Position numbers and translations under genes: made by a program. Below, one piece after another: positions 8,507-26,323 of a stretch of 64,000 nt of DNA. A model generated the notes under the pieces. That model was not told where the DNA came from. It saw nothing but the letters and a program-made list of their open reading frames with translations, and did not search any database. Source of the stretch: Eubacteriales bacterium (GTDB lineage: Bacteria; Bacillota; Clostridia; Oscillospirales; CAG-272); assembly GCA_045535815.1 (NCBI GenBank), contig JAZSMJ010000068.1:5459-69458 (forward strand). The letters run 5' to 3'. Numbering within the stretch: the first letter of the stretch is position 1; each line of letters begins with the position of its first letter.

Positions 8507-10726
8507 TTATTCTGTAATTTCTACAAGCTTAAGTGAGGATATTGCAAAAACGGTGTCACCCTCCGAGAGAGCGTTATCGTTTCCAAAAATAATGAAGAAT
8601 GAATTGAAATCACGAACATTGAAGGAGCCGCCTATAGAATTAAAGGTGATAAACCAGGTGTTCCAGCCTTTTTCAATGCTTTTCCAAAGCTGTTTGCTGC
8701 TGCTTACTCCGTAATCAAGGCGGGTCTTGATATCATAATCTCCCGGCTTTGAAAGATTATTTCCGGATTTAGATACAGAATTGCCCCAGAACATACGGTA
8801 TACAGTAGAGGGATCGGTGATTTTCTTTGAGCTGTAAAAGGTCATAACGAAGCCGAGGCGGTCTATATCAGTCTTTGACAGATCAACGTTAAAGTGACGT
8901 CTCAGTGTTTGGTTGCCGGCTGATATGGCGGTTGAAGACTGCTTGCGGCATACTGCGTTAACACCGTCTATTTTTTCATAGGCAACGTTATTTTTACCCG
9001 TAGAGCCGTCGCCTGTCCACCATGAGTCCGAGTCAACAAGCTCGCAGATAACTGTATGCTCGGGAATGGCAACATCCTTACCTGCGTATGCCTGCTCGTA
9101 GAGTACGGACTGATAGTTGGGATCGTAATCCTTAGGCTCTATAGATGAAAGAGGTACTATAGCAAGCTCGCAGTCCTCTTTGTTTTTGGCGTATACCACG
9201 TAGAGATTTCCGTCTGCCTCGTATGCATAAGGGTAGCTCCACTCATTCGACGCCCAGTAAACAGGCTTGGAATCAAATACGTTTTTGAGAATATATGACG
9301 TGGTAAATCCATAGGATCCGTCCTTTTCTCCTACCGATATCATCATAGTTGCACGCGAACCTAAGTTGTAAACTATATATTTGCTTCCTGTGCTGAGAGT
9401 ACCGCCGTATACCTTTGAATCGGCAATATTGAAATCTGAAAGAGTAAACGAGGTCCACGTTTCACCGTTGTCAAAGCTTTGGCTTACCGCCATTTTTGAA
9501 GATGCCGATCTTATAAATGCAACAAGTCTGTCACCGTAATCGACGACCGATGTCTCTCCCCACACAGAAAGATTGTTTTTGTTCGGAAGTGTTATCATTC
9601 TCCACGAGGTAAGGTCATCTCCGTCAGATATTGCAACTGCCGGAGCAGCACCGCTTTTGCAGTTGAGCCCTGCAATAAGAATGTTTCCGTTTTCAAGCAC
9701 CATAGGCTCGCAAAGAGGCCAGAAATTCTCATCAAGGACGGTGCCGTGCGATTCCCAACTCATATCCTCGCAAAGTGTATATGCTTCCATAACCAGACCG
9801 GGGTATCCTCCACCGTGACCGTACATCGCCTTGGGGGCAAACGCCCAGACTGTGTTCTCGTATTCAAACAGAACTCCGTGGCTTCTTGAATAGCGTCCTT
9901 CAGGACCCGCTATTACAACCTCTTCGCTCCATGTCTTACCCATGTCGTAGGAATACTTGCAGGCAAATCGTGAGCCTGAATCGTTTTCGGTAAGGAGTCC
10001 CTGGCCGTAGGCGCAGATAAGAAAACCGTCGTGCTTTATGATAGATGCGCCCAAAAGGAAATGGTGTCCGTCTGCCTGAGCCTTATGTACGGAAACGTAT
10101 TCAATATCCTCAGCAAAGGTAACATCGCCGTTTTTGGGGTTAAGCTTTGCGTTATTTATAAGCTCCATATCAGGGTAGATCTCCTCCGTGGGTTTTTTAA
10201 GCAGGTTAAATGACAAAATTGAAACGTCAATAGCATCTATAAACATATCGGAATTTATATCAGCTGATGCGTATGCAGCCGGTCCTGCAGACTTTCCGAT
10301 ATCGTATGATAAAGCCGAAACGTCACCGGCGTCAATAAAGCCGTCTCCGGTAATGTCACCGGGAGTAAGAGCAATTTCCGATATTCCGGGAATATACGTC
10401 TCGGTAAGATCAATGCTTGAGCTTACGTCGATGCCCTTTACAGTGTATCCAAGATTGTTACCGCCAGATATAACAAGATCGTATATACCGCTCTCAAGTC
10501 CCGAGAGAGAGAATTTACGTTCGATAGCATCAGAGCTCTTTACGGGCTCAAGGATAGTGTGGCATATCTCAATTCCGTTACAAAGGGCGGTAATTTTAGT
10601 TTCGGAATAGTTGAAATAACCGATTATGTTTCCGCTTATACCGAAGTCAGCTGCATAAACTGTAAACGATACTGATAATAGAATTAAAGCAAAAGCAAAG
10701 GTAAATAAAATCTTAATTTTTTTCAT
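8507..10726 (-). CDS. Secreted dockerin-containing sialidase-fold/BNR protein with a C-terminal CBM-like domain
   Basis: Signal peptide MKKIKILFTFAFALILLSVSFTVYA, then an Ig-like module. A dockerin duplicated motif follows (GDITGDGFIDAGDVS...ADINSDMFIDAIDVS). The BNR domain has SYDMGKTW and SFDNGETW. The last ~190 aa are beta-rich. Confidence 0.75.
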   Translation of the reverse strand: MKKIKILFTFAFALILLSVSFTVYAADFGISGNIIGYFNYSETKITALCNGIEICHTILEPVKSSDAIERKFSLSGLESGIYDLVISGGNNLGYTVKGIDVSSSIDLTETYIPGISEIALTPGDITGDGFIDAGDVSALSYDIGKSAGPAAYASADINSDMFIDAIDVSILSFNLLKKPTEEIYPDMELINNAKLNPKNGDVTFAEDIEYVSVHKAQADGHHFLLGASIIKHDGFLICAYGQGLLTENDSGSRFACKYSYDMGKTWSEEVVIAGPEGRYSRSHGVLFEYENTVWAFAPKAMYGHGGGYPGLVMEAYTLCEDMSWESHGTVLDENFWPLCEPMVLENGNILIAGLNCKSGAAPAVAISDGDDLTSWRMITLPNKNNLSVWGETSVVDYGDRLVAFIRSASSKMAVSQSFDNGETWTSFTLSDFNIADSKVYGGTLSTGSKYIVYNLGSRATMMISVGEKDGSYGFTTSYILKNVFDSKPVYWASNEWSYPYAYEADGNLYVVYAKNKEDCELAIVPLSSIEPKDYDPNYQSVLYEQAYAGKDVAIPEHTVICELVDSDSWWTGDGSTGKNNVAYEKIDGVNAVCRKQSSTAISAGNQTLRRHFNVDLSKTDIDRLGFVMTFYSSKKITDPSTVYRMFWGNSVSKSGNNLSKPGDYDIKTRLDYGVSSSKQLWKSIEKGWNTWFITFNSIGGSFNVRDFNSFFIIFGNDNALSEGDTVFAISSLKLVEITE

Positions 10727-10748
10727 TTTCTGTATGACCTCATTTTAT

Positions 10749-11435
10749 TTATTGTTTTTCGGTTAAATCACTCAGGTTATTGAATATGCCGTTTACGTGG
10801 AAAATCATAGCCTTTTCTGCCTCATTTGCAGATCCCTTGGCTATTGCCGAGACAATATCCTTATGCATTGATATCGCGTGCACGCCGTTTCCTTCAACAG
10901 CGAAAAGGTTAGCTCTGTAATCGGTAAGCTTTTCGTTCAGTATAGATAATATGGAGATCAGCACCTCGTTTTTTGAAAGCTCGGCTATCTTCATATGAAG
11001 ACGGTCGTCACTCTCCGCCATGCCGATGGGGTCATTTTTAGCATATGCATCCTCGTATCTGTAAAGCAGTCCCCAAAGGAACGTAACCTCATCCTCGCTT
11101 GCGTTTTTGGCTGCAAGTGATGCGCAGAGCGGTTCGATAGCTCTTCTTGCTTCAAGGATATCCTTTAAAGCGTACTTATTTTTTGCAAGCCAGCCTGATG
11201 CACTTTTGCTTTCACTCGGCAAATCTTCAGATACGAACGCACCGCGACCGGGCTTTATTTCAACGTATCCCGCCGCCTCAAGTGAGCGCAAAGCCTCTCT
11301 GAGACTTGTTCTGCTGACCGATAGAGTGGAGCAAAGCACTGCTTCAGACGGAAGCTTTTCTCCAAGCGGATACGCTCCCGACTTTATGTTTTTTCTAAGC
11401 TGTTCAAAAACGGTATTTGCAACTGTTTTTTTCAT
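10749..11435 (-). CDS. GntR-family regulator, FadR subfamily (FCD domain)
   Basis: The N-terminus is a GntR HTH (LPSEAVLCSTLSVSRTSLREALRSLEAAGYVEIKPGRGAFV). The C-terminus is an all-helical FCD-like domain. Confidence 0.85.
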   Translation of the reverse strand: MKKTVANTVFEQLRKNIKSGAYPLGEKLPSEAVLCSTLSVSRTSLREALRSLEAAGYVEIKPGRGAFVSEDLPSESKSASGWLAKNKYALKDILEARRAIEPLCASLAAKNASEDEVTFLWGLLYRYEDAYAKNDPIGMAESDDRLHMKIAELSKNEVLISILSILNEKLTDYRANLFAVEGNGVHAISMHKDIVSAIAKGSANEAEKAMIFHVNGIFNNLSDLTEKQ

Positions 11436-11622
11436 ATGGACCTACCTTAAAGTTGTGATATTGTATGACATCGTACAATATTATAACACGACGATATCAT
11501 TTTGTCAATAGATTATCAGGAACACCCACAAACTTAATTGAAAAACTATTGTTTTTCCTGCAAAGATTAGTTATAATAATGTTGATAACGTGTAAAAAAA
11601 AGTCAGATAAACGGAGAATTAT

Positions 11623-11702
11623 AATGAATTACCGTAAGTTAAAAAATAGATATTCGCCTCTTCTGCTTCTGATAGCTGTTATTTTAGCGCTGATTTTGCA
11701 GG
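11623..11702 (+). repeat. Copy C: the intact, functional version of the repeated signal-sequence segment, inside the VanY-type gene
   Basis: See copy B. It encodes MNYRKLKNRYSPLLLLIAVILALILQGC with an intact lipobox. Confidence 0.8.
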
Positions 11703-12691
11703 GCTGTGACGGCAGCGAGGGCGCTGTTATAACCGAGCAGACGAGCGAGGGCACGGATGCCGAAGCCGTTATCGAGATGACTAGGGCCGAGCAGGATGAA
11801 ACGGAGGAAACCGTTGAATATACCGAAACGGAACCCGAAGTGCAGAGTGAAACAGAGCCTGAATCTCTTACGGAAACAGAGCCCGAATCGGAGGACGAGG
11901 TATATACAGAGCAAAGCGTCGGTGTGACCGATATAAGCCTTTCAACCTATGACGTCAGCATAATAGTAGGGCAGTCAAAAATGCCTATCGTTACCATGTA
12001 TCCCGAAAATGCCACCGATAAGGGCGAGAAATGGGTAAGCTCGGATGAATCGGTCGCAAGCGTTAATTGGTACGGTGATATCCTGGGAGTCTCCGAGGGT
12101 GAATGCACCGTAACGGTCACCTCGACGGATAATCCAGAGGTGTTTGCAACCGTAAACGTTAAGGTAACGCCGGACGTTGAGTGCACCTACATAGATGGAA
12201 TACTCATAGTTAACAAGACCTATCCGCTTCCCATGAGCTATGCTCCCGGGAACGATCAGGAGGCGGTGGATGCGCTGTACGTTATGTTTGCCGCCGCAAA
12301 GGAGGAGGGTCTTACGCTTTTTGTCAAATCGGGCTACAGAAGCTATATCGACCAGAAGATAATATATAACGATTACGTTGCAAGAGACGGACAGTCGGTC
12401 GCCGACAGATATTCCGCACGCCCCGGACATTCGGAGCATCAGAGCGGTCTTGCCTTTGATCTGAACTCGCTTATGCAGGATTTCGGAGAGAGCCCGGAGG
12501 GAATATGGCTTGCCGAAAACTGCTATAAATACGGATTTATCATAAGATACCCCAAGGATAAAGAAGAAATAACCGGCTATATGTACGAGCCCTGGCACGT
12601 TCGCTATCTTGGAATAGATACGGCAGAGAAGGTATATGAAAGCGGCCTATGCCTTGAGGAATATCTCGGGATAACGTCGTCGTATTCGTGA
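11624..12691 (+). CDS. Lipoprotein D-alanyl-D-alanine carboxypeptidase (peptidase M15B/VanY family) with acidic linker and Big_2-like domain
   Basis: Lipobox LILQGC, an ETEPE-type acidic repeat linker and a Big_2-like segment. VanY motifs are SGYRSY, SEHQSGLAFD and EPWHVRYLG. The ATG at 11624 has an RBS, and the longer annotated N-terminus is unlikely. Confidence 0.8.
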   Translation: MNYRKLKNRYSPLLLLIAVILALILQGCDGSEGAVITEQTSEGTDAEAVIEMTRAEQDETEETVEYTETEPEVQSETEPESLTETEPESEDEVYTEQSVGVTDISLSTYDVSIIVGQSKMPIVTMYPENATDKGEKWVSSDESVASVNWYGDILGVSEGECTVTVTSTDNPEVFATVNVKVTPDVECTYIDGILIVNKTYPLPMSYAPGNDQEAVDALYVMFAAAKEEGLTLFVKSGYRSYIDQKIIYNDYVARDGQSVADRYSARPGHSEHQSGLAFDLNSLMQDFGESPEGIWLAENCYKYGFIIRYPKDKEEITGYMYEPWHVRYLGIDTAEKVYESGLCLEEYLGITSSYS

Positions 12692-12734
12692 TATTTGCAA
12701 AAAAACTTTTAGAAAAAATACAGGAGCTTTAAAA

Positions 12735-13958
12735 ATGAACGGTACAAAACAAAATCTTTCGGTGCGCTTTGCATATTTGGTTATAGGCGTTATTGCTATG
12801 CTGTTTGCAGGTATACTGTACGCATGGTCTATTTTGAAATCGCCCCTGTCATCCGAGTTTGGCTGGGGTGCATCTCAGCTCGCTCTGAACTTTACGCTTG
12901 CTATGAGCTTTTTCTGTATAGGCGGACTGCTTGGAGCCAAGCTGTCAGGACGGTTTGGTCATCGGATAGCACTGATCGTCAGCGGTATACTGTCTGCGCT
13001 GGGATTCGTAATGACCGCCCTTTTGCCCGGCACGTACGTATGGATGCTTTACGTTACGTACGGAGTTTTGGCAGGCACGGGGATTGGTATAGCGTATAAC
13101 GTAGTTATCGCTACGGTAAGCGCTTGGTTCCCGGATAAGAAGGGGCTTTGTTCAGGATGTCTTATGATGGGCTTTGGCGCCTCTGCGCTGTTGCTCGGTA
13201 ACGTGGCAGATGCAATGTTCAAGGGCAGCTTCGGATGGCGCAAGACCTATATGATATTGGGGGCGGCGATCTGTGCCGTTATGATAATCGCAGGATTTTT
13301 ACTCAGAAAGCCCGGCTCTGACGTGATCTTCCCGCAGCCGACTGCTTCTAAAGCATCGTCGGGTGAGAGCTTTGAGCGCAAGGATTATACGTCGACTCAG
13401 ATGCTGAAGCGTCCGTCCTTTTGGATGGCGTTCGTATGCATTTCATTTCTTGCGGCGGTCGGAAGCTCGGTCATAAGCTTTGCAAAGGATCTGGCTCTGT
13501 CTGTGAATGCTCCCGAATCCCTTGCGGTGTCCTTGGTTGGAGTTTTGTCTGTCTGTAACGGCATTGGACGAATAATCACAGGTGCTGTTTTTGATGCCAT
13601 CGGGCGCAGAAAAACCATGCTGTGTGCAAATTTCCTTACCGTCTGTGCCGCTACCGTTACCCTGATAGCAGTAACCGTAGGATCCTTGCCGCTGTGTATT
13701 GCAGGACTGTGCCTGACGGGAATATCGTACGGATCGTGTCCCACCATCACCGCCGCCTTTACGTCTTCGTTTTTTGGAATGAAGCATTTCTCAACCAATA
13801 TGGCGCTTATGACGTTTACGGTAATGGGCGGATCGCTTATAGCAACCGTGTCAAATAAAGTTTTAGAGGCAACGGGCGGATATACCGCCGCATTTGCGAT
13901 GCTTCTTTTGCTTACGCTGACGGCATTGGTGCTGAATTTCTTTATTCGCAAGCCATAA
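12735..13958 (+). CDS. MFS transporter, oxalate/formate antiporter (OFA)-like
   Basis: 12-TM profile. The N-terminal motif VIGVIAMLFAGILYAWSILKSPLSSEFGW is typical of OFA-type MFS proteins. Confidence 0.8.
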   Translation: MNGTKQNLSVRFAYLVIGVIAMLFAGILYAWSILKSPLSSEFGWGASQLALNFTLAMSFFCIGGLLGAKLSGRFGHRIALIVSGILSALGFVMTALLPGTYVWMLYVTYGVLAGTGIGIAYNVVIATVSAWFPDKKGLCSGCLMMGFGASALLLGNVADAMFKGSFGWRKTYMILGAAICAVMIIAGFLLRKPGSDVIFPQPTASKASSGESFERKDYTSTQMLKRPSFWMAFVCISFLAAVGSSVISFAKDLALSVNAPESLAVSLVGVLSVCNGIGRIITGAVFDAIGRRKTMLCANFLTVCAATVTLIAVTVGSLPLCIAGLCLTGISYGSCPTITAAFTSSFFGMKHFSTNMALMTFTVMGGSLIATVSNKVLEATGGYTAAFAMLLLLTLTALVLNFFIRKP

Positions 13959-13963
13959 AACGG

Positions 13964-13992
13964 TTGCAACGGCTAAGTGCGTATGCTATAAT
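13964..13992 (+). promoter_or_regulatory. Sigma-A-type promoter driving the retron ncRNA/RT
   Basis: TTGCAA (13964-13969), 17-nt spacer, TATAAT (13987-13992). Confidence 0.65.
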
Positions 13993-13996
13993 AAAG

Positions 13997-14181
13997 TGAA
14001 CAATAGTGTTATTCCGCTAAGGCAGAAGCCGTAAGCGAGTCGCTTACGGTATACAAAAAATTGATCGTATTCGCAAGCTCAGATGAAAATGCTCGGAGTA
14101 ATCCCACACTTCGTGTGTCAATGCGGCCCTGCCGCATGACATTACACCTGCGCTTTTCATTATACAAATTAGTATTGTTCA
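13997..14181 (+). ncRNA. Candidate retron msr-msd non-coding RNA
   Basis: It lies between the promoter and the RT start. The terminal inverted repeats are a1 tgaacaata (13997-14005) and a2 tattgttca (14173-14181). Internal hairpins are ccgtaagcg/cgcttacgg (14029-14049) and an imperfect stem tgtcaatgcggc/gccgcatgaca (14116-14141). Confidence 0.6.
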
Positions 14182-14193
14182 AGGATTTTTGTT

Positions 14194-15120
14194 ATGATAG
14201 TGTACAAGGAGCTTTCTTCAATCGAGAGGGATCTCGGTATCCCTGCAAAAACGCTCTACGGAGTCAGTAATAATATATCGGCACATTACCGAAAGGTTAA
14301 GATTCCCAAAAGGGACGGAAGCTACCGTGTGCTGTCCGTTCCGGACGAGGTGCTGAAAAGGATACAGCGATCTATCGCCCTGAATCTTTTGGCATACGAG
14401 GAGATCTCGGTATACGCAAAGGCCTACAAGATAGGTGCAGGCGTGAAAAATAACGCTCTGCCGCATATCGGAAAGAGCTCTGTGCTAAAGCTGGATATAC
14501 GGAATTTTTTTGACAGCATTACCTATTCCTCGGTAAAAGAAAAGGTCTTTCCCGAAAATAAATATTCGGAAAAGATCAGAATACTTCTATCCATGCTCTG
14601 CTATTGCGGTGAGGTGCTTCCTCAGGGTGCGCCTACCTCGCCCGTCATTACCAATATCATAATGAGGGATTTTGACGAGACAGTCGGCGCATGGTGCGCT
14701 CTGCGCTCGGTAAGCTATACAAGATACTGCGACGATATGACCTTCTCGGGAGAGCTTGATACCGATGAGATCATAGAGTTCGTTTCGGATCAGCTTAAAA
14801 AGCGCGGCTTGTTTTTGAATAAAAGCAAGACTAAGCACGCACGTTTTGGTCAAAGACAGACCGTTACCGGAATAGTCGTAAACCAAAAGATAAATATATC
14901 GAGCGAATATAAGCGCAAGATAAGGCAGGAGGTCTTTTATTGCCGTAAATTCGGTGTAGAGGGGCATCTTGCGAGGATAGGGGAGGATATTTCACCCGCA
15001 AAATATTTAAGCAGTCTTATGGGACGCATAAACTACGTTTTGCAGATGCTTCCCGAAAACGAGGAGTTCAAAGGCTACAGATCAGCCGTCTCCGATATGA
15101 TAAAAAATGAAAATAAATAA
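14194..15120 (+). CDS. Retron-type reverse transcriptase
   Basis: 308 aa with motifs NALPH (NAxxH), LDIRNFFDSI, LPQGAPTSPVITNI, YTRYCDDMTFS (YxDD) and the retron-typical VTGIVVN. Confidence 0.85.
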   Translation: MIVYKELSSIERDLGIPAKTLYGVSNNISAHYRKVKIPKRDGSYRVLSVPDEVLKRIQRSIALNLLAYEEISVYAKAYKIGAGVKNNALPHIGKSSVLKLDIRNFFDSITYSSVKEKVFPENKYSEKIRILLSMLCYCGEVLPQGAPTSPVITNIIMRDFDETVGAWCALRSVSYTRYCDDMTFSGELDTDEIIEFVSDQLKKRGLFLNKSKTKHARFGQRQTVTGIVVNQKINISSEYKRKIRQEVFYCRKFGVEGHLARIGEDISPAKYLSSLMGRINYVLQMLPENEEFKGYRSAVSDMIKNENK

Positions 15121-15143
15121 GATCCGAGGCACAGCCTCGGATC
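15121..15143. terminator. Bidirectional terminator shared by the RT gene and spoIVB
   Basis: gatccgaggc-aca-gcctcggatc, a 10-bp perfect stem. Confidence 0.7.
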
Positions 15144-15147
15144 TTAT

Positions 15148-16392
15148 TTATGATGCCGCTTCAAGCATATTTTCTATAAAGATTCCGTAGCCTCTCGTAG
15201 GGTCGTTTACAAGAACGTGGGTCACTGCTCCGATTATACGTCCGTCCTGTATGATGGGTGAGCCGCTCATTCCCTGAACGATTCCGCCGGTTGCTTGAAG
15301 AAGAGCCGGATCGGTGACCTCAACTATAAAGTTTTTCGTTTGAGAATTCATATCGCAGATGCGTTCTATATTTACCGAATACTGATTTACCTTGTTATCG
15401 TCAAGGGTGCAGTATATAAATGCCTCGCCTTCCTTGACCTCGCTCTTGAGAGCGATAGGTATTGCATTTGATGCAAGGCTTTGCGGTATCGAATCTATTT
15501 TACCGTAAACTCCGGTTCCTGTATTGGCTGAAAGTGTTCCTATATTTGCAGTGCCGAAAAAGCCCTTGAGCTCTCCCGGAGTGCCTTTTATTCCCTTGGT
15601 TATTCCGCTGACGGTAACGTTTACCACAGATCCCTTTAAAAGAGGCATCAGCTCCTCGGTGTCTATATCGCATATGCCGTGTCCCAGCCCCGCAAACGCA
15701 CCGCTTGAGGGATCTATATAGGTAACGGTGCCTATTCCTGCGGTGCTGTCTCTTATCCATATACCTGCCTTGTATTTTCCGTCAGATGATGAATACACGG
15801 GCCTTAGTGTAAAATTACATTCATTCTCGCCACGCATCAGCTTGATCGTTACGGCACTGCCGTTACATTCTTCAATAGCTGCACTCACCTGCGCCGCTGA
15901 GTTTACCTCCTTGCCGTTTATCTCGGTAATTATATCCTTTATCCGTATACCTGCATCGGAAGCGGGATTTGAGGTGCTGCCGTCATCCGAGACAACGTCT
16001 GACAGTCCGACGACTATGACTCCCTTGGTATAAAGCTTCACACCGAACGCCATCCCGCCGGGATAGAGAACGGCACGGTCATAGACTCGAACGTCCACCT
16101 CCTTTATATTTATCGAATCAAAAAGCTTAGCGGCGGCGGTATAGCTTCCGACAAAGCCGTTTGAAGAGGCGGGCAGCTCGTTCATTTGGTCGGACGAGAC
16201 CGTTATAAACGGGCAATTTATACTCGGTGTGTCTGCGGCATAAACGGATATGCTGTCCGGTATGGCATTATCAAGCACACCGCAGACGGCACATATCGAC
16301 GCAAACAGCGAAAACAGCAGTATCGGAAGCGAAGGCATTCGTTTTTTGAAGTGAGGCATTGTTTTGCGTGCTTTAAAAATAGAAAAATTCAT
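15148..16392 (-). CDS. spoIVB: SpoIVB peptidase (S55, PDZ-containing stage IV sporulation signalling protease)
   Basis: The C-terminus GGIVQGMSGSPIIQDGRIIGAVTHVLVNDPTRGYGIFIENML is diagnostic, and there is a PDZ-like middle region. The start may be a downstream Met. Confidence 0.85.
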   Translation of the reverse strand: MNFSIFKARKTMPHFKKRMPSLPILLFSLFASICAVCGVLDNAIPDSISVYAADTPSINCPFITVSSDQMNELPASSNGFVGSYTAAAKLFDSINIKEVDVRVYDRAVLYPGGMAFGVKLYTKGVIVVGLSDVVSDDGSTSNPASDAGIRIKDIITEINGKEVNSAAQVSAAIEECNGSAVTIKLMRGENECNFTLRPVYSSSDGKYKAGIWIRDSTAGIGTVTYIDPSSGAFAGLGHGICDIDTEELMPLLKGSVVNVTVSGITKGIKGTPGELKGFFGTANIGTLSANTGTGVYGKIDSIPQSLASNAIPIALKSEVKEGEAFIYCTLDDNKVNQYSVNIERICDMNSQTKNFIVEVTDPALLQATGGIVQGMSGSPIIQDGRIIGAVTHVLVNDPTRGYGIFIENMLEAAS

Positions 16393-19869: not shown

Positions 19870-20031
19870 ATCTAAGATATATTTATAATTATATATATAA
19901 ATTGAAAATTTTTATAATATATATTTACAAATAAGGGAAAATAAGGTACAATAATCTAAGTGGGGATCTTTTTGCGAAGGATCTTTCGTGATCAGAATGT
20001 AAAAATCATGGAAATGAGAGGTGTCAAAGCA

Positions 20032-20769
20032 ATGCAGAAGACAGATAAACCTCTTTACAAAAGAGTGTTGTTAAAATTATCCGGAGAAGCCCTTGCAACC
20101 GGAGGAGACGGTATTATCAATTATGATTTTGTCAGCGAGATATGCCACGCGGTAAAAAGATGTGTTGATATAGGCGTTCAGGTTGCTATAGTTGTGGGTG
20201 CCGGAAATATATGGAGAGGCCGTCAGGGTGCAAAGATGGACCGCACGAGAGCGGACCATATGGGTATGCTGGCAACCACGATAAACGCTCTTGCACTTCA
20301 GGATGCGCTTGAACAGCACGGAATGAATACGAGAGTTATGACCGCTATCGAGATGAGACAGTTTGCAGAGCCCTATATAAGAAATAAGGCAGTTTCCCAT
20401 CTCGAAAAGGGAAGAGTTGTTATTTTCGGATGCGGAATAGGAAACCCCTTCTTCTCGACCGATACTGCATCGGTAATGAGAGCGGCTGAGATAAATGCAG
20501 ATATAGTAATGCTTGCTAAAAACATCGACGGCGTATATACCGCCGATCCCAAGCTTCATCCCGAAGCTAAGAAGATCGACTCGATGGACTTTATGCAGAT
20601 ACTTTCAAACGGACTTACCGTTATCGATTCAACTGCGGCATCGTTCTGTATGGATAACGATATTCCGATACTCTTGTTTGCTCTGAACGATCCCGAAAAT
20701 ATCGTAAGAGCAGTTAACGGCGAAAAAATTGGAACCATAGTAAAGGGAGGAAATAAACATGAAACTTGA
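20032..20769 (+). CDS. pyrH: UMP kinase
   Basis: [23 protein letters not shown]. Start taken at MQKTDK, which has an RBS. Confidence 0.9.
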
Positions 20770-21313
20770 CGTTAAAGAATTTGAAGCAAAGATGAAGCGT
20801 ACCACTGAGGTGTACGCATCCGAGCTTGCTTCCATAAGAGCAGGTAAGGCAAGCGCTGCCGTGCTTGATAAGGTAACTGTTGACTACTACGGCGCTCCCA
20901 GCGCTATAAATCAGATCGCAGAGGTCAAGACTGCGGATGCACGCACGCTGGTTATTCAGCCTTGGGACGCATCAATGCTCAAGAGCATTGAAAAGGCGAT
21001 CATCGTTTCCGATATAGGAATTCAGCCCGCAAACGACGGTAAGGTATTGAGACTCGTATTCCCTCAGCTTACAGAGGAGAGAAGAAAAGAGCTTACAAAG
21101 CAGACCGCCAAGATGGGTGAGGAAGCAAAGGTTGCAGTCAGAAACATAAGAAGAGATGCTAACGAAAAGTGCAAGCTGATGAAGAAGAACGGCGAAATGA
21201 CAGAGGATGAACAGAAGGCGTCCGAAAAGAGCGTTCAGGATCTTACCGATAAGTACATCAAAGAGGTTGATGCTATAACTGCGGCTAAGGACAAGGAAAT
21301 AATGTCCATCTGA
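20759..21313 (+). CDS. frr: Ribosome recycling factor
   Basis: 184 aa with a typical Frr sequence ([24 protein letters not shown]). Confidence 0.9.
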
Positions 21314-21390
21314 CGTTTTTTAACAGTATAAATATTTTACTGAAAGATAGGGGATGCGGATATCCGCGTCCCCTTAAATGGAATTTAGAG

Positions 21391-22104
21391 ATGTTTGGTT
21401 TTCACAGAAAAAAGGCAGAGAAGGCTCCGTCCTCGCTTCGTCACATTGCTTTTATAATGGACGGAAACGGAAGATGGGCATCGAAAAAGGGTATGCCCAG
21501 AGAGTACGGACACAGCGTCGGGGCTCAGACCTTTGAAAAGATAGCGCAGTATTGCGGTGATATAGGAATTGAATATATAACGGTATACGCTTTTTCTACC
21601 GAAAACTGGAAGCGGCCTGAGCGTGAGGTTGGCGAGATAATGAGATTGTTCAGAGAATATCTCAAGCGAGCTCGTGACAATTTCGTCGAAAAGGATATGC
21701 GTATTCGTATAATAGGCGATACGCAATGCTTTGACGCTGAGACCAAGGCGCTGATAGAGGAGATCGAGGTCGCCTCTGCCAAAAACAGAAAAAAGGTCAA
21801 CATCGCTATGAATTACGGCGGAAGACAGGAGATAGTCAGCGCCGTAAACAAGCTTATCGCAAGCGGTGCAGACAGCGTTACCGAGGATGATATAGAATGC
21901 GCGCTTTATACCGCAGGAATACCCGAGCCGGATCTTATAGTGCGCACGGGCAATGAGAAGAGAACGTCCAATTTTCTCATGTGGCAGTCTGCCTATTCCG
22001 AGCTTTATTTTACCGAAACGCTCTGGCCGGATATGACGTGTGAGGACGTTGACAGAGCGATCAGCGATTTTTCAAAGAGAAAACGCCGATACGGCGGAAT
22101 ATAA
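21391..22104 (+). CDS. uppS: Isoprenyl transferase / undecaprenyl-diphosphate synthase
   Basis: HIAFIMDGNGRWA, FSTENWKRP, RTGNEKRTSNFLMWQ. Confidence 0.9.
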   Translation: MFGFHRKKAEKAPSSLRHIAFIMDGNGRWASKKGMPREYGHSVGAQTFEKIAQYCGDIGIEYITVYAFSTENWKRPEREVGEIMRLFREYLKRARDNFVEKDMRIRIIGDTQCFDAETKALIEEIEVASAKNRKKVNIAMNYGGRQEIVSAVNKLIASGADSVTEDDIECALYTAGIPEPDLIVRTGNEKRTSNFLMWQSAYSELYFTETLWPDMTCEDVDRAISDFSKRKRRYGGI

Positions 22105-22128
22105 CGGTACGGAGGAAATGCGTTCCAT

Positions 22129-22962
22129 ATGAAGACAAGAATACTTACGGCTATTATACTGATAGCTATCGCAATACCGTTCCTTTATTTTTCGCATACC
22201 GTTGCATTCAACGTGGTGATAGCCCTTGTAGCCTTCGTCGGCGCTTACGAGATACTTAACTGCACGGGACAGAAGAACAGCGCCTTGGTGTCTGTTCCTA
22301 CATACGCAATATCCGTTCTGATTCCGTTTATGACGAGATATGCGGGAAGCACGGAAAGGTTTTTTGCGATATCATTTATTGCTGTATTCGTCTATCTTTT
22401 TTGGATGTTTGCAGTATCGGCCTTCTGCAATGCCAAGATAAACGTTAAGGATTCGGCAATTACCTTTGCATTTACCTCGTATACGGTAATAGGACTTTCG
22501 ATAATAATATTATTCAGGGATATGGACCTTGGAAGGTATATGTATCTTCTCGTGTTCTTCTATGCGTGGATATGCGATTCCTTTGCATATTTCACAGGAA
22601 GAGCTATCGGAAAGCATAAGCTTATCCCGTCGGTAAGCCCCAAAAAGACGGTAGAGGGTGCGATAGGCGGAATTGTATTTACCGCACTTTTCTCGCTCCT
22701 TTACGGATTTGTGATAGGCGTATTTTTCGACGTTACTCCCAATTATCTTACGCTTGCCGTTATGGGAACGGTGGCCGCAGTGGTATCGCAGTGCGGAGAC
22801 CTTATAGCGTCTCAGATAAAAAGGACGTACGGCATCAAGGACTTCGGATATATCTTCCCCGGACACGGCGGAGTTCTTGACAGATTTGACAGCGTCCTTG
22901 CGGTAGCTCCGTTCTTGTATTTTCTGGTTGAGATGCTTCCGCTTAAGGCAATGTTTTTCTAA
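22129..22962 (+). CDS. cdsA: Phosphatidate cytidylyltransferase
   Basis: Polytopic protein with the CdsA signature SPKKTVEGAIGG...GDLIASQIKR...PGHGGVLDRFDS. Confidence 0.9.
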   Translation: MKTRILTAIILIAIAIPFLYFSHTVAFNVVIALVAFVGAYEILNCTGQKNSALVSVPTYAISVLIPFMTRYAGSTERFFAISFIAVFVYLFWMFAVSAFCNAKINVKDSAITFAFTSYTVIGLSIIILFRDMDLGRYMYLLVFFYAWICDSFAYFTGRAIGKHKLIPSVSPKKTVEGAIGGIVFTALFSLLYGFVIGVFFDVTPNYLTLAVMGTVAAVVSQCGDLIASQIKRTYGIKDFGYIFPGHGGVLDRFDSVLAVAPFLYFLVEMLPLKAMFF

Positions 22963-22989
22963 TTAAGTTTTGATTTTTGAGGATAATAT

Positions 22990-24147
22990 ATGATTAAAGG
23001 CGATATGAGCATATCCGTTTTCGGCTCTACCGGGTCGGTCGGAATGCAGGCGCTTGACGTTGCCCGTTTCAGAGGTACCGGGGTAGATGCCCTTTGCGCT
23101 ATGAAGAATATAAAGCTGCTCGAAGAGCAGATCCGTGAATTCAGGCCAAGGTTTTGCGCAGTAGCAGACCCTTTGGCTGCAAAAGAGCTAAGGGATCGCA
23201 TAGGAGATACCGACACGGTTGTGTATTCGGGAAAAGAGGGCGTTGAAGAGCTTGCAGGCATAGTTGAATCCGATATACTTTTAAATTCGATAGTCGGTGT
23301 AGCCGGACTTCGCACCACTCTTGCAAGAGTTAAAACGGGGCGCACGCTCGCACTTGCGAATAAAGAATCGCTGGTGGCGGCAGGCGAGCTCGTTATGAAA
23401 ACGGCAAGAGAAAACAATACGCAGATACTCCCGGTAGACAGTGAGCACTGTGCGATATTTCAATGTCTTCGTGCAGGCAGAGAAAGTGAGATCAAAAGGA
23501 TAATTCTCACCGCATCGGGAGGTCCTTTTTTCGGTAAGAGTGCAGATGAGCTCAAAAACGCATGTGCCGCTCAGGCTCTTGCCCATCCTACCTGGAGCAT
23601 GGGAAGCAAGATAACCGTTGACTGCGCAACTCTTATGAATAAGGGCTTTGAGGTCATTGAGGCGGCTCATCTTTTTGGAGTTCCTGCCTCGGATATAGAC
23701 GTCGTCGTTCACAGAGAGAGCATAATACACTCTATGGTGGAATATGTTGACAATGCAGTAATAGCGCAGATGTCAAAGCCCGATATGCGTATGTGCGTTC
23801 AGTATGCGCTTACCTATCCCGAAAGGGAGGCGGGGCAGACGGCGCCTATCGACTTTGCTTCTCTTGGCTCTCTCAGCTTTTATTCCCCCGATAAGCAAAC
23901 CTTCAAGCTGCTCCCGCTTGCATACAAGGCGTTTGATATGGGCGGTGATGCAGGTGCGGCGCTCAATGCCGCAAACGAGGCTGCGGTCGGCTATTTCCTT
24001 TGCGACAAAATATCGTTTTCCGATATTTCCGATATCGTTTGCGATACGGTCAATAATTATAAGAGCAAGGACTACAGCTCGGCTGAGCAGATAGAAGAAA
24101 CTGATTTTGAGATAAGACAGACAGTTTGCGATATGATTAAACTATAA
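22990..24147 (+). CDS. dxr: 1-deoxy-D-xylulose-5-phosphate reductoisomerase
   Basis: GSTGSVG, LANKESLV, PVDSEH, HPTWSMG. Confidence 0.9.
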   Translation: MIKGDMSISVFGSTGSVGMQALDVARFRGTGVDALCAMKNIKLLEEQIREFRPRFCAVADPLAAKELRDRIGDTDTVVYSGKEGVEELAGIVESDILLNSIVGVAGLRTTLARVKTGRTLALANKESLVAAGELVMKTARENNTQILPVDSEHCAIFQCLRAGRESEIKRIILTASGGPFFGKSADELKNACAAQALAHPTWSMGSKITVDCATLMNKGFEVIEAAHLFGVPASDIDVVVHRESIIHSMVEYVDNAVIAQMSKPDMRMCVQYALTYPEREAGQTAPIDFASLGSLSFYSPDKQTFKLLPLAYKAFDMGGDAGAALNAANEAAVGYFLCDKISFSDISDIVCDTVNNYKSKDYSSAEQIEETDFEIRQTVCDMIKL

Positions 24148-24183
24148 TGGAGATGAATTGAGATAACTATCGTAATTGCTTTA

Positions 24184-25191
24184 TTGGTCTTTGGTGTGCT
24201 GATATTCGTACACGAGCTCGGTCATTATATTGCCGCGCGTTCCTTTAACGTTTCGATTAAGGAATTCGCAATAGGTATGGGACCTAAATTAATATCAAGA
24301 AGGTCTGAAAAAACAGGCATAGTATATTCTCTGAGGCTTTTACCCATCGGAGGATTCGTCAGTATGGTCGGCGAGGATGAGGCATCCGATGACGAGGGTG
24401 CGCTGATAAACAAGCCGGTATGGCAGAGAATGATCATTACTGCCGCAGGAGCGGCAATGAACCTCGTCCTCGGTATTATTCTGATGGCAGTTATGGTAAT
24501 GGCATCCGATAAGCTCGGCTCAACCGAGATAGTCAAGTTTGAGAGCGAGGACGCATCGTCCTATCAGAGCGGACTTGAGGTCGGAGACAGAGTTGTCAAG
24601 ATAAACGACAGAAGCACGCATATTTCATACGAGCTTTTATACGAGATAATGCATCAGGGCAGTGAGCCCATCGACGTTACGGTTATAAGAGACGGCGAGA
24701 GAGTGCTTGTAGAGGACGTTGAATTTGAAAAGATAACCGAAGAGGGAATAGTTTTCGGTGAGATAGATTTTTACGTAAGAGCTGAAGAGAAAAGCTTTGC
24801 AAACGTAATAAAGCACGGCTTTTATCAGTCGACTGCATCCATCAAGCTGGTGTGGGATTCGCTTATCGACTTTATAAGCGGTAAATACGGCGTGGATCAG
24901 GTATCGGGTCCGGTCGGTGTTACGACTGCAATAGGAAATGCCGCAAAGCAGAGCACTGTCAGTCTTTTATACCTTTGCGGTATTATAACCATAAATCTCG
25001 GTATGTTCAATCTGATCCCAATACCTGCGCTTGACGGCGGAAGACTGCTGTTCCAGCTTATCGAGCTTATCAGAAGAAAGCCGGTAAAGCCGGAGATAGA
25101 GGGATATATACACTTTATCGGTATAGTTATACTGATGCTGTTTATGGTATTCGTATCCTTTAAGGATATTATTAAATTATTTGCCAAATAG
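24184..25191 (+). CDS. rseP: RIP site-2 metalloprotease (M50, RseP/RasP-type) with PDZ domain
   Basis: HELGHY zinc motif very near the N-terminus, and the NLIPIPALDGG motif. The true start codon is uncertain: TTG at 24184, or a non-canonical codon a few codons upstream. Confidence 0.85.
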   Translation: MVFGVLIFVHELGHYIAARSFNVSIKEFAIGMGPKLISRRSEKTGIVYSLRLLPIGGFVSMVGEDEASDDEGALINKPVWQRMIITAAGAAMNLVLGIILMAVMVMASDKLGSTEIVKFESEDASSYQSGLEVGDRVVKINDRSTHISYELLYEIMHQGSEPIDVTVIRDGERVLVEDVEFEKITEEGIVFGEIDFYVRAEEKSFANVIKHGFYQSTASIKLVWDSLIDFISGKYGVDQVSGPVGVTTAIGNAAKQSTVSLLYLCGIITINLGMFNLIPIPALDGGRLLFQLIELIRRKPVKPEIEGYIHFIGIVILMLFMVFVSFKDIIKLFAK

Positions 25192-25210
25192 GGCAAAAGG
25201 AAGGTTTTGA

Positions 25211-26287
25211 ATGGATTATAACGCTATCAGGCGCAAAAGCAGAAGGATACGTATAGGAAATATTTATATAGGTGCAGATCAGCCGATAGCGGTTCAGTCT
25301 ATGACCAACACCGACCCTCACGACTATGACAAAACGCTTTCTCAGGTAAGAGAGCTTGAGGCGGCAGGCTGTGATATCGTAAGACTTGCTATACCCGACC
25401 TTGAGGCTGTGAGGGTAATTTCAAAAATAAAAGAATACGGCGGCATTTCGGTGCCGCTCGTTGCAGATATACACTACGATCACAAGCTGGCTCTTGAGTG
25501 CGTTTCCGCCGGTGTTGATAAGATAAGGATCAACCCGGGAAATATAGGTGACGATAAAAAGGTAGAGCTTGTGGCAAAAAAATGTGCAGAGCACGGCGTG
25601 CCTATAAGAATAGGGGTAAACAGCGGCTCTCTTGAGAGGCATATACTCGAAAAGCACGGGGCTCCTACGGCTCAGGCACTTGCGGAAAGCGCGCTTTATC
25701 ATGCGTCACTGCTTGAAAAGAACGGATTTTTCGATATCGTTTTGGCAGTCAAGTCATCAGACGTTGCGACTATGATAAACGCCACCAGAATAATTGCCGA
25801 TGCGACCGATTATCCGATACATTTAGGAGTTACCGAGGCAGGCACTCCTCACGATGGGGTTATCAAATCTGCGATAGGTATAGGCTCGCTTATCTGCGAC
25901 GGTATCGGTGATACCATAAGGGTATCGCTGACTGCTCCGCCTGCTCTTGAGGTGAAGGAGGGCAGAGCGCTTCTTCGTAATATAGGTATAGGCGGTGGGA
26001 TAAGAGTTACGTCATGTCCTACCTGCGGAAGAACCAAGATAGATCTGATAGAGCTTTGCGAGGCTTTTGAGGAGCGTATAGCACGTGGCGACGTAAGATC
26101 TGACAGACCGTTGCACGTTGCAATAATGGGCTGTGCGGTAAACGGACCGGGTGAAGCAAGAGAGGCTGATATAGGCATAGCAGGCGGTGTCGGAGAGGGA
26201 CTCCTTTTCAGACACGGTGAGATAATAAGAAAAATTCCGCAAAACGAGATAATAGATCAATTGATCAAAGAAATCAACGATATGTGA
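25211..26287 (+). CDS. ispG: 4-hydroxy-3-methylbut-2-en-1-yl diphosphate synthase
   Basis: VQSMTNT, RINPGNIG, CPTCGR, MGCAVNGPGEA. Confidence 0.9.
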   Translation: MDYNAIRRKSRRIRIGNIYIGADQPIAVQSMTNTDPHDYDKTLSQVRELEAAGCDIVRLAIPDLEAVRVISKIKEYGGISVPLVADIHYDHKLALECVSAGVDKIRINPGNIGDDKKVELVAKKCAEHGVPIRIGVNSGSLERHILEKHGAPTAQALAESALYHASLLEKNGFFDIVLAVKSSDVATMINATRIIADATDYPIHLGVTEAGTPHDGVIKSAIGIGSLICDGIGDTIRVSLTAPPALEVKEGRALLRNIGIGGGIRVTSCPTCGRTKIDLIELCEAFEERIARGDVRSDRPLHVAIMGCAVNGPGEAREADIGIAGGVGEGLLFRHGEIIRKIPQNEIIDQLIKEINDM

Positions 26288-26323
26288 TAAGCTCGCATAA
26301 ATGCGAAAAAAGGACGGTTCAAA

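Follow-up and report, generated by a model that had tools for sequence, protein, structure and literature searches.

In every retron whose mechanism is understood, the complex of reverse transcriptase (RT) and msDNA restrains a toxin; the Ec107-like clade is a large and repeatedly noted exception. Retrons without an associated protein, including those of the Ec107 branch, were described as 'orphan retrons' by Mestre et al. in 2020 (PMC7736814). A 2026 SPIRE survey (10.64898/2026.05.14.725207) lists 192 members of this clade (clade2_Ec107like), 178 of which (93%) come from Bacillota, and finds no recurrent accessory module. The Ec107_like msr/msd model is among those most often detected (PMC7736814; 10.64898/2026.05.14.725207). 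The Ec107 RT shares only 20-26% identity with the 15 other validated retron RTs and, of all these, it alone carries a YCDD box (PMC6868368), and its branch shares a node with RTs linked to PRTase (PMC7736814). Co-expressed with nothing but the ncRNA, RTs of clade 2 rank among the best producers of RT-DNA (PMC10849725). Ec107 was omitted from the 2020 defence screen.

The element described here occupies positions 13964-15151 of a 64-kb stretch of clostridial DNA, which was analysed as a whole and is referred to below as the window. It is a compact cassette composed of a sigma-A-type promoter, an msr-msd RNA of ~185 nt, a 308-amino-acid (aa) retron RT, and a terminator. We put at roughly 80% the probability that this cassette is an intact, predicted-expressed and self-contained retron from the 'orphan' lineage of Ec107-like elements (Retron-Eco5, RT clade 2), with no effector in cis and under purifying selection in core-chromosome contexts.

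The dedicated sigma-70/sigma-A-type promoter (plus strand, 13964-13992) consists of a -35 box TTGCAA (13964-13969), a 17-nt spacer with a TG extension, and a -10 box TATAAT (13987-13992). This TTGCAA-17-TATAAT arrangement, already pointed out in the initial annotation, scores 10 of 12 matches in a promoter scan. A comparable -10 box (at least 5 of 6 matches) is found just 5' of a1 in 53 of 62 related loci, is a perfect TATAAT in 31 of the 62, and mostly starts 12-15 nt 5' of a conserved GAAC. At the other end of the cassette, a G+C-rich stem-loop of 18 bp (15113-15151) overlaps two stop codons, that of the RT gene (15118-15120) and that of spoIVB, which runs convergently. It had been proposed that a terminator shared with spoIVB closes the unit. 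The hairpin indeed covers both stops; sharing is plausible only, as the terminator scan calls the minus strand alone and the T-run of the plus strand falls within the 3' arm of the stem. Upstream, a co-directional gene for an MFS transporter ends at 13958, 5-6 nt before the -35 box, in agreement with the position first reported for it. Neither between this gene and the cassette nor between the cassette and spoIVB is there free coding space.

The RT gene (plus strand, 14194-15120) is preceded by the ribosome-binding site AAGGA at 14181-14185. Its 308-aa product contains, all intact, the hallmark motifs named in the initial annotation: NALPH (region X, NAxxH), LDIRNFFDSI, QGAPTSP, YCDD, and VTGIVVN (region Y, VTG). 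Pfam RVT_1 matches the protein with an E value of 4.9e-23. Among PADLOC models, the best is RT_Ec107-like (421.9 bits, E 3.8e-127), followed by RT_III-A (336.3 bits), and all 25 of the PADLOC matches listed are to retron RT models (150-420 bits). The nearest solved structures are likewise retron RTs (Ec86, E 4e-28), compared with E values of ~1e-7 for group II intron RTs and Drt2. The protein lacks a fused effector domain and has the length of a bare retron RT.

The ncRNA lies between the promoter and the RT gene, on the same strand, and has the canonical order, which recurs in related loci. Its closing stem is formed by a1 (TGAACAATA, 13997-14005) and its exact complement a2 (TATTGTTCA, 14173-14181), the latter preceded by an invariant G at 14172. 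In shuffled 235-nt sequences, an inverted repeat of at least 9 nt with arms at least 100 nt apart arises in 3-4% of cases; thus, the 9-nt repeat alone is weak evidence. The pairing noticed initially becomes convincing through its conservation and compensatory change over ~60 homologous loci: 8 of 11 pairs of this helix (helix 1) show compensatory change, with relatives carrying the paired variants GAACAAUA/UAUUGUUC, GAACGGUA/UACCGUUC, and GAACAACA/UGUUGUUC. The dinucleotide AG, made up of the last a1 base and the base that follows it (A12 and G13 of the alignment), does not vary in any of the 62 aligned loci. Going by how retrons generally work, the guanosine directly 3' of a1, G14006, is predicted to be the priming (branching) guanosine.

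Two hairpins follow in the msr part. Hairpin 1 (14012-14027) is short and variable in sequence, is present in the minimum-free-energy fold, and corresponds to helix 2, whose three consensus pairs have all changed on both sides. Hairpin 2 (14029-14049; helix 3) has a 9-bp stem and a near-invariant core, GCGAGUCGC, at 14035-14043; 95.7% of its alignment cells are paired, and seven of its nine pairs show compensatory change. Its GCGAGTCGC also occurs in the E. coli Ec107 ncRNA. Hairpin 2 is probably the hairpin recognised by the RT. A conserved linker block, CGTATTCGC (14066-14074), separates msr from msd and is a candidate site at which reverse transcription would stop and the 3' end of the msDNA would stay paired with RNA. 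The msd (14082-14161) folds into a long imperfect stem, GATGAAAATGCTCGGAGTAA ... TTACACCTGCGCTTTTCATT, with inner hairpins that include 14124-14140. Pairs of this stem covary in 38 and 31 relatives, with further support from helices 5-7 and 9, and the apical part differs in length between lineages. Both internal hairpins of the initial annotation, 14029-14049 and ~14115-14144, are present in the minimum-free-energy fold.

The ncRNA as a whole folds with z = -3.33, a value reached by none of 200 shuffles, and RNAalifold finds compensatory change in 17 of 22 pairs across 62 loci. In the consensus structure, 87% of cells are paired, as against 31-45% when partners are slid, a margin inflated by derivation of the structure from the same alignment; 35 of 44 consensus pairs change on both sides, and none of 500 shuffles reaches the observed values. 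Open reading frames (ORFs) of 57 and 69 aa that run over the ncRNA are regarded as spurious: the 69-aa frame is lost in a relative with 87% identity, and the region evolves by base-pair compensation.

For comparison with Retron-Eco5 (Ec107), the E. coli locus was located through split matches of the K-12 slmA-pyrE junction in complete E. coli genomes; the sequence used was NZ_CP086520.1. The RT encoded between slmA and pyrE is 43% identical to the clostridial RT over 293 aa (E 4e-87), shares with it the identical stretch YTRYCDDMTFSG, which includes the YCDD box, and has the same best PADLOC model, RT_Ec107-like (437 bits). The relationship extends to the RNA. A covariance model of the 69-position msr part, built from clostridial msr sequences only, matches the E. 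coli Ec107 ncRNA (30.6 bits, E 1.3e-5) and gives no match on the empty K-12 slmA-pyrE site; in the 64-kb window it has one significant copy only. In both ncRNAs, a1 ends in ...AAUA followed by G, the GCGAGUCGC hairpin is present, and a2 starts with G-UAUUG; their spans are similar (~190 nt in Retron-Eco5, ~185 nt here). Moreover, both elements are ncRNA-RT cassettes of ~1.2-1.3 kb situated where two chromosomal genes converge and a terminator would be expected, and neither has a mobile-element gene nearby. They differ in host (Pseudomonadota versus Bacillota, class Clostridia), in the a1/a2 stem (15 bp with two G-U pairs versus 9 bp), and in the msd, whose sequences are unrelated except for the flanks. 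In addition, msDNA-Ec107 has been shown experimentally, whereas msDNA of the element described here is predicted. On the basis of HMM scores, pairwise identity and ncRNA homology, the RT and ncRNA are assigned to the Ec107-like branch (RT clade 2).

Other described retrons are less similar. Type III-A retrons (e.g., Retron-Eco11, type III-A3) supply the second-best RT models, but their PRTase-like and winged-helix partners are absent beside the RT; PADLOC families of these two kinds have no match in the window or among the flanking proteins of 80 related loci. Retrons with fused effectors (RT-Toprim of type I-C Retron-Eco2, RT-protease of type XI, RT-TIR of type XII) also combine a single protein gene with an ncRNA; however, their proteins of ~470-600 aa carry a C-terminal effector domain, and the 308-aa RT matches only the RT part. 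From the clade2_Ec107like orphan retrons the element does not differ in kind: it has an Ec107-branch RT and no recurrent accessory gene, and the 80 related loci agree with this description, as with the mostly Bacillota distribution. The initial annotation had presented the effector-less arrangement as potentially novel. As solo retrons of this clade were catalogued in 2020 (PMC7736814) and again in 2026 (10.64898/2026.05.14.725207), the element is a further member of a known clade and not a new kind of system. What is added, for one clostridial subfamily, is a conserved promoter of its own, a covariation-supported msd, a dN/dS estimate, and linkage to spoIVB.

The 80 related loci, from genomes of Oscillospiraceae and other Clostridia, have the same promoter-ncRNA-RT layout with strong base-pair covariation, and the RT measures 301-326 aa in 81 loci. 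Genes in these loci were called as ORFs of at least 70 aa, a limit under which a very small partner would escape notice. Within this scope, the 80 related loci contain neither a neighbour gene that recurs beyond small syntenic groups nor any known retron effector. The largest neighbour cluster comprises 10 proteins in nine loci, at scattered positions; these are XRE-type HTH proteins, and their recurrence is weak. PADLOC finds no retron effector model among 149 flanking proteins, only generic XRE-HTH and similar matches; the XRE-type HTH neighbours that match the HTH_VI and RmrA models (6 of 149 proteins) were judged a generic HTH signal in view of their scattered positions and lengths. Among the 52 other ORFs of the window, no match to effector-type families (PRTase, NDT, ATPase-TOPRIM, HNH) was obtained at E <= 1e-6, and the few single matches are generic. 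The statement that the RT has neither an adjacent nor a fused effector therefore holds for the window and for the 80 relatives alike. An Lrp/AsnC-type gene overlaps the RT stop codon in two loci (L005, L031) and lies close downstream in two others (L015, L018); as these four loci share other flanking genes too, the adjacency is explained by synteny, and the gene was set aside as a candidate effector. A dGTPase-like gene that follows the RT in a single locus (L082) was rejected, as it heads the dnaG-sigA operon there.

Sequence comparison with the closest relative (L081, RT 87% identical) gives a dN/dS of 0.083 at a dS of 1.05, and the two ncRNAs are 94.5% identical although dS is ~1. The element is thus maintained under purifying selection rather than decaying. 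The spoIVB gene adjoins the RT in five loci, over which spoIVB identity falls to 47-49%. Because genomic contexts differ among most of the related loci, long-term vertical inheritance is supported for the spoIVB-linked subgroup only. The window and many relatives have housekeeping-gene surroundings and not defence islands. The best deposited phage or plasmid relatives of the RT are ~41% identical, and a peptide-pattern search yields one distant match in 2.9 million viral contigs versus 368 in genomes; on these data, the element is not phage- or plasmid-borne.

Several other explanations of the locus have to be weighed against an intact orphan retron. Membership of the RT in another class (group II intron, DGR, or Abi/UG/DRT RTs) is scarcely conceivable. 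It could be argued from the generic RVT_1 domain and from weak NCBIfam matches to the group II intron RT/maturase model TIGR04416 (67.7 bits) and to Drt2 (69.5 bits), but these scores lie far under the respective cut-offs of 300 and 390 bits, retron models reach the much higher values given above, and the retron-specific NAxxH and VTG motifs are accompanied by an ncRNA with an a1/a2 stem and covarying hairpins. An Rfam scan of 13800-15300 (E <= 10) returned only chance matches on the terminator hairpin and no retron, group II intron or other family. The retron assignment made initially is thus upheld. Membrane effectors occur in some types of retron (2TM, type IV). This has been counted, together with the co-directional position of the 12-TM MFS transporter immediately upstream of the -35 box, in favour of the idea that the transporter is an unconventional membrane effector. 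The protein is, however, of the ordinary OFA/monocarboxylate type, as had been recognised from the start (NCBIfam L-lactate MFS, 262 bits; OFA family, 190 bits; Pfam MFS_1), and has no PADLOC match. None of the 82 other RT loci contains a homolog, and another gene lies upstream of the RT in its closest relative. In metagenomes, MFS homologs with 60-86% identity were found on six contigs, most of them short, and none of the six carries an RT or spoIVB. Conserved adjacency of MFS gene and retron, as envisaged in the initial annotation, is therefore absent; the transporter is ruled out as a partner at the comparative level, and its role as an effector is highly improbable.

Recent loss of an effector, leaving behind a degenerate retron without function or in decay, is also improbable, if slightly less so, and the data on selection and conservation largely refute it. 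Three extra genes (339, 113 and 245 aa) between the RT and spoIVB in the closest relative are missing from the window, and Mestre et al. suggested that a partner of the PRTase type may have disappeared from the Ec107 branch (PMC7736814). Yet these genes lie 3' of the RT's own terminator, have their own promoter, are without Pfam or PADLOC matches except for a weak SUKH_5, and have no counterpart in the 82 other loci; they were rejected as a deleted effector. Nor do close homologs uniformly carry an adjacent effector that is deleted here. The strong constraint on RT and ncRNA described above argues against decay, as do the intact catalytic and retron motifs and a promoter and ncRNA structure kept across ~60 loci; if an effector was ever lost, this would have happened long ago, at the root of the clade, and the element would have been maintained thereafter. 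A dedicated effector encoded elsewhere in the genome, i.e., a tripartite defence retron in which RT-msDNA restrains an unlinked toxin until a phage infects the cell, has more to recommend it, and we regard it as possible albeit unlikely. All mechanistically studied retrons use an effector, Mestre et al. raised this possibility for orphan branches (PMC7736814), and the sister RT group is tied to PRTase-like effectors (PMC7736814), in line with RT_III-A as the second-best PADLOC model. The Ec107 insertion, moreover, occurs in only ~5 of 60 evenly sampled complete E. coli genomes, a patchy, accessory or defence-like distribution. Against this, the known partner proteins of retrons have no homolog in most genomes that carry an orphan retron (PMC7736814), no such effector was found in the 64-kb window or beside the 80 relatives, linkage is normally kept in toxin-antitoxin-like pairs, and the housekeeping surroundings are not those of a defence island.

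For the intact orphan retron, a course of msDNA synthesis can be outlined from the anatomy of the element and from the way studied retrons work, with start, stop and branch positions as predictions. Transcription from the constitutive-type promoter would produce one RNA in which the ~185-nt msr-msd is joined to the RT mRNA. Pairing of a1 with a2 (13997-14005 with 14173-14181) would set the invariant G14006 beside the end of the template. The RT would probably dock on the GCGAGUCGC hairpin, prime from the 2'-OH of G14006, copy the msd leftwards from about 14172, and stop near the conserved block at 14066-14081. The expected product is a branched msDNA of roughly 90-105 nt, folded as a long stem-loop.

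What such a particle does can be suggested with less assurance. An RT-msDNA sensor module whose output runs via an unlinked or housekeeping host factor is the reading we lean towards, at somewhat below even odds. A function of the RT or msDNA alone, unrelated to a toxin, is less probable, and a nearly neutral retroelement or something else would account for the remainder. More speculatively, and with considerable doubt, it can be proposed that Ec107-like solo retrons of gut Clostridia are domesticated, largely vertical msDNA producers without a dedicated toxin, in which the particle itself counters invading nucleic acids or has a role for the host that is linked to stationary phase or sporulation. 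Hints in this direction, none of them decisive, are the purifying selection on RT and ncRNA, the conserved strong promoter, the core-genome contexts, the spoIVB adjacency over deep divergence, the near absence from phage, plasmid and viral contigs, and the induction of Ec107 by starvation, as cited in PMC6868368. If this is true, retrons would have a second mode of action besides that of the toxin-antitoxin model.

Within an abundant subfamily of gut Clostridia, the locus is a clean and evidently functional example, which offers well-defined cassette boundaries, a covariation-supported RNA structure, and an element under selection. As clade 2 RTs are strong producers (PMC10849725), the compact RT-ncRNA pair may interest users of retrons as in-cell DNA producers. 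Relatives are present in cultured strains, namely Allofournierella massiliensis An912, Ruminococcaceae bacterium D5, and Pseudoflavonifractor sp. HCP28S3_F10; together with this example, they make the role of Ec107-like retrons experimentally approachable.

The cassette at positions 13964-15151 of the window can be assigned, with a probability of about 0.8, to the Ec107-like orphan retrons, i.e., to retrons without an associated protein that resemble Retron-Eco5 (Ec107; RT clade 2) of E. coli. It has its own promoter and a predicted terminator. The promoter (13964-13992, + strand; TTGCAA-17-TATAAT, TG-extended) is close to the consensus; it is the top-scoring promoter-like site of the 4-kb neighbourhood in a promoter scan and lies in a 235-nt intergenic region (13959-14193). 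Within the same region and on the same strand, a1 (TGAACAATA, 13997-14005) and a2 (TATTGTTCA, 14173-14181) are exact reverse complements, and a2 is followed by a ribosome-binding site (AAGGA) and by the RT start codon, ATG, at 14194. The 201-nt RNA folds with its ends paired (-57.4 kcal/mol, z = -3.33; none of 200 shuffles was as stable); its 5' part contains hairpins at 14012-14027 and 14029-14049, and its 3' part a long stem enclosing inner hairpins (14082-14161). The a1/a2 repeat by itself would not be enough to identify a retron ncRNA, because a 9-nt inverted repeat with distant arms is present in 3-4% of shuffled versions of the 235-nt region. The cassette ends in an 18-bp stem-loop (15113-15151) that contains both the RT stop codon and the stop of the convergent spoIVB gene (15148-16392; Peptidase_S55 match, E 1e-83). 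The promoter, a1/a2 pair, hairpins and RT motifs described in the initial annotation were thus all found as described, and its view that the ends of the RNA pair agrees with the fold.

The RT ORF (308 aa; 14194-15120, + strand) carries NALPH, LDIRNFFDSI, QGAPTSP, YCDD and VTGIVVN and matches Pfam RVT_1. It had been called a retron RT from its motifs, and profile searches bear this out, classing it as an Ec107-type retron RT. In particular, the top PADLOC model is RT_Ec107-like (421.9 bits, E 3.8e-127), RT_III-A models come next at 336 bits and lower, and the remaining matches listed are all to retron RT models. In NCBIfam, retron models score 163-218 bits, whereas group II intron and DRT models reach 25-70 bits, well short of their cut-offs. 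Among solved structures, the retron RTs Ec86, Ec83, Ec78, Kva2, Ec67 and Eco8 are nearest, and those of group II intron RTs and of Drt2 rank approx. 20 orders of magnitude behind.

The Ec107 locus itself was recovered by searching the E. coli K-12 slmA-pyrE junction, the described site of Retron-Ec107 (PMC6868368; PMC7736814), against all complete E. coli genomes; at the bottom of the ranking, matches are split by an approx. 1.27-kb insertion annotated as 'reverse transcriptase family protein'. In strain Ec-042-T20-ESBL (NZ_CP086520.1; locus L084), a 319-aa RT lies between slmA and pyrE and matches RT_Ec107-like at 437 bits. The window RT is 43% identical to it over 293 residues (E 4e-87), and YTRYCDDMTFSG is identical in the two proteins. 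According to the published identity table (Simon 2019), the Ec107 RT shares merely 20-26% identity with the other 15 validated retron RTs, and it has been singled out for YCDD in place of YADD (PMC6868368). The insertion was seen in 5 of 60 evenly spaced ranking rows, all five at the bottom (e.g., L084 993-2294); a rough estimate from this sampling is that approx. 7-10% of 5,425 complete E. coli genomes carry Retron-Ec107 at slmA-pyrE.

A scan of a genome collection with peptide patterns returned 368 related stretches, the best 80 of which are 54-65% identical and nearly all from gut bacteria of animals and humans assigned to Oscillospiraceae, Eubacteriales or Clostridia; one match from protein databases is 87% identical to the window RT (locus L081). 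An a1/a2 pair on a common core was placed in 62 loci, and these were aligned. Here, a1 reads ...GAACAAYA and is followed by an invariant G, a variable small hairpin, a 9-bp hairpin whose core, GCGAGUCGC, is near-invariant, the block CGTATTCGC and a long msd stem with an apex of variable length; the 3' end consists of ATACA, an invariant GU and a2. In 53 of the 62 loci, a1 is closely preceded by a -10 box that matches TATAAT at 5 or more of its 6 positions; the box mostly begins 12-15 nt ahead of the conserved GAAC and usually comes with a TTGACA-like -35 box. The a1/a2 arms vary in a compensatory manner among loci (GAACAAUA/UAUUGUUC, GAACGGUA/UACCGUUC, GAACAACA/UGUUGUUC, GAGCAAUA/UAUUGCUC and others), 17 of the 22 pairs in the RNAalifold consensus carry compensatory changes, and covariation of the msd stem is seen in a 38-sequence subset. 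When a structure of 44 pairs was tested on 31 aligned sequences, 87.0% of cells were paired, compared with 30.9-44.9% in controls with the partners shifted by 1-3 columns, and 35 of the 44 pairs change on both sides, compared with 11-22 in those controls; the structure was derived from the tested alignment, so that the margin over the controls is somewhat flattering, yet it is large, and none of 500 shuffles reaches any observed measure. Covariation among homologous loci, proposed earlier as a check, shows that the ncRNA structure is under selection. A subfamily of about two dozen loci with a1 GAACAACA carries an additional stem-loop (approx. 60 nt) that separates the CGTATTCGC block from the msd stem (columns 119-199 of the ncRNA alignment A1; e.g., L012 987-1225, L013, L020, L048 and L061), and its ncRNAs measure 228-257 nt, compared with approx. 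170-200 nt otherwise.

A covariance model of the msr part, built from clostridial sequences only, matches the E. coli Ec107 locus exactly upstream of the RT (30.6 bits, E 1.3e-5), finds nothing in the empty K-12 slmA-pyrE site and detects one significant copy in the 64-kb window. The E. coli ncRNA shares several landmarks with the clostridial one: a 15-bp a1/a2 stem whose a1 ends in ...GCAAUA followed by G, a GCGAGTCGC hairpin, and an a2 opened by G-UAUUGCC. Moreover, both cassettes lie between convergent genes, at a place where a terminator is to be expected, with no mobility gene nearby. Rfam contains no family matching the window ncRNA; covariation, the model match and the common landmarks mark this RNA as genuine and as a homologue of the Ec107 ncRNA.

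The initial annotation had recognised no effector gene beside the RT, and this observation extends to the relatives. RT length is 301-326 aa in all 81 loci; none of these RTs therefore has a fused domain. PADLOC detected no retron effector family (PRTase, NDT, ATPase-TOPRIM, HNH) at E <= 1e-6 among the other 52 ORFs of the window, where matches are few, single and generic and a DEDDh match probably reflects the PolC exonuclease domain; nor did it detect these or any other retron effector family among 149 immediately flanking proteins of related loci, which match only generic HTH, RmrA and similar models. When ORFs of at least 70 aa were called in each locus and four neighbours per side were clustered, the largest real cluster comprised 10 XRE-type HTH proteins (129-387 aa) in 9 loci at offsets of -4 to +4 (e.g., L003 7566-8498, L059 3472-3861, L079 1215-2378), and six flanking proteins match the PADLOC HTH_VI and RmrA models; this recurrence is probably a generic HTH signal. 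Two clusters were discarded as spurious frames over the conserved ncRNA, and the others are small syntenic housekeeping groups (alanine racemase-like, aminoacyl-tRNA-synthetase-like, Lrp/AsnC, AraC, sigma factors, glycosidases). No effector is encoded in cis, and the cassette, like the whole family, is self-contained. In four loci, an Lrp/AsnC-type regulator (approx. 152-191 aa) directly follows the RT (L005 4193-4657, L031 2928-3389, L015 6960-7535, L018 6932-7390), its start overlapping the RT stop in L005 and L031; synteny and functional coupling are inseparable here because three of the four (L005, L015, L031) have the same upstream flanking gene.

Two of the readings suggested initially concern the MFS transporter and a lost effector. 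The OFA/monocarboxylate-type MFS transporter gene ends at 13958, directly upstream of the cassette, and was considered as an unconventional effector; its homolog is absent from all 82 other RT loci, L081 has a different upstream gene, and six mostly short metagenome contigs with MFS homologs (60-86% identical) carry neither RT nor spoIVB, so this option was rejected. The alternative of a lost effector draws on L081, which retains the spoIVB-pfkB synteny of the window and has, between the RT terminator and spoIVB, three extra genes (L081 1444-3720) absent from the window: two co-directional genes, whose products are 339 aa long without a detectable domain and 113 aa long with a weak SUKH_5 (SMI1/KNR4 immunity-like) match, and, on the opposite strand, a gene for a 245-aa TPR protein. 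The first two have their own promoter and terminator after that of the RT, the three have no Pfam or PADLOC match beyond the weak SUKH_5 and TPR repeats, and they were found in no other locus. The three genes resemble a separate insertion, perhaps a pair of the toxin-immunity type, rather than a family partner, and were rejected as a recently deleted effector. Degeneration of the cassette also fits poorly: compared with L081, the window RT shows a dN/dS of 0.083 at a dS of 1.05, and the 201-nt ncRNA region is 94.5% identical. Both are therefore strongly constrained, and decay was rejected.

The element is genuine and functional-looking. A single transcript would carry the msr-msd and the RT mRNA. 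By analogy with studied retrons and from the anatomy, the a1/a2 duplex may present the 2'-OH of G14006, and the RT, probably via the GCGAGUCGC hairpin, would copy the msd from approx. 14172 leftwards and stop near the conserved 14066-14081 block, giving a predicted branched msDNA of approx. 90-105 nt. In a published census (PMC10849725), clade 2 RTs expressed with only the ncRNA ranked with the strongest RT-DNA producers. As to its role, the retron may tentatively be seen as a sensor module acting through an unlinked or host factor; a function of the RT and msDNA only is rather unlikely, and a near-neutral element or another role takes the remaining share.

An associated protein is absent from the clade 2 branch with Retron-Eco5 (59 RTs) and from branches of clade 11, and most host genomes of such 'orphan retrons' lack known retron partners, leaving trans effectors or a different mechanism as possibilities (Mestre et al. 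2020, PMC7736814). Ec107 was left out of the defence tests by Millman et al., and the SPIRE survey of 2026 (10.64898/2026.05.14.725207) counts 192 members of clade2_Ec107like, 178 from Bacillota, reports no recurring accessory module for them and gives the group low novelty priority. The window element therefore adds one member to a described group and would not surprise a specialist; the anatomy given initially stands, while its novelty was overstated. The question raised by an effector-less retron is real and already recognised, a full-text literature search returned no paper giving orphan, standalone or effector-less retrons a function, and the clostridial subfamily, with its cultured carriers, offers a practical entry to what they do.

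Downstream of the cassette lie pyrH, frr, uppS, cdsA, dxr, rseP (M50 peptidase), ispG and polC (19960-30748, + strand); with this housekeeping cluster nearby, the region is core chromosome and neither defence island nor prophage. Five loci have a convergent spoIVB downstream of the RT: the window, L081 (3801-5045), L008 (3652-4887), L011 (8754-9980) and L056 (6762-7862). In the last three, spoIVB is 47-49% identical to that of the window and the RTs 58-60% identical; retention of the adjacency at such divergence suggests long co-residence of the retron beside spoIVB within one lineage. Outside these loci, the RT context differs. In the relative L082 (71% identical), the genes after the RT encode first a dGTPase-like HD protein (PADLOC dGTPase, 264 bits) and then DnaG and SigA (9161-13184); dGTPase is a listed defence family and here heads a housekeeping-looking operon. 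Deposited phages and plasmids contain no close RT relatives; the best, each approx. 41% identical, are on a 4.7-kb human faecal 'Bacteriophage sp.' contig (H61, MT838960.1) and in Vagococcus lutrae NZ_CP116505.1 (H73). The same peptide patterns gave one distant match (29% identical) in 2.9 million viral contigs, compared with the 368 genomic relatives. Elsewhere in the window, a 739-aa secreted protein (8507-10726, - strand) that combines a type I dockerin with a BNR/sialidase-like domain points to a cellulosome-type, Ruminococcaceae-like host.
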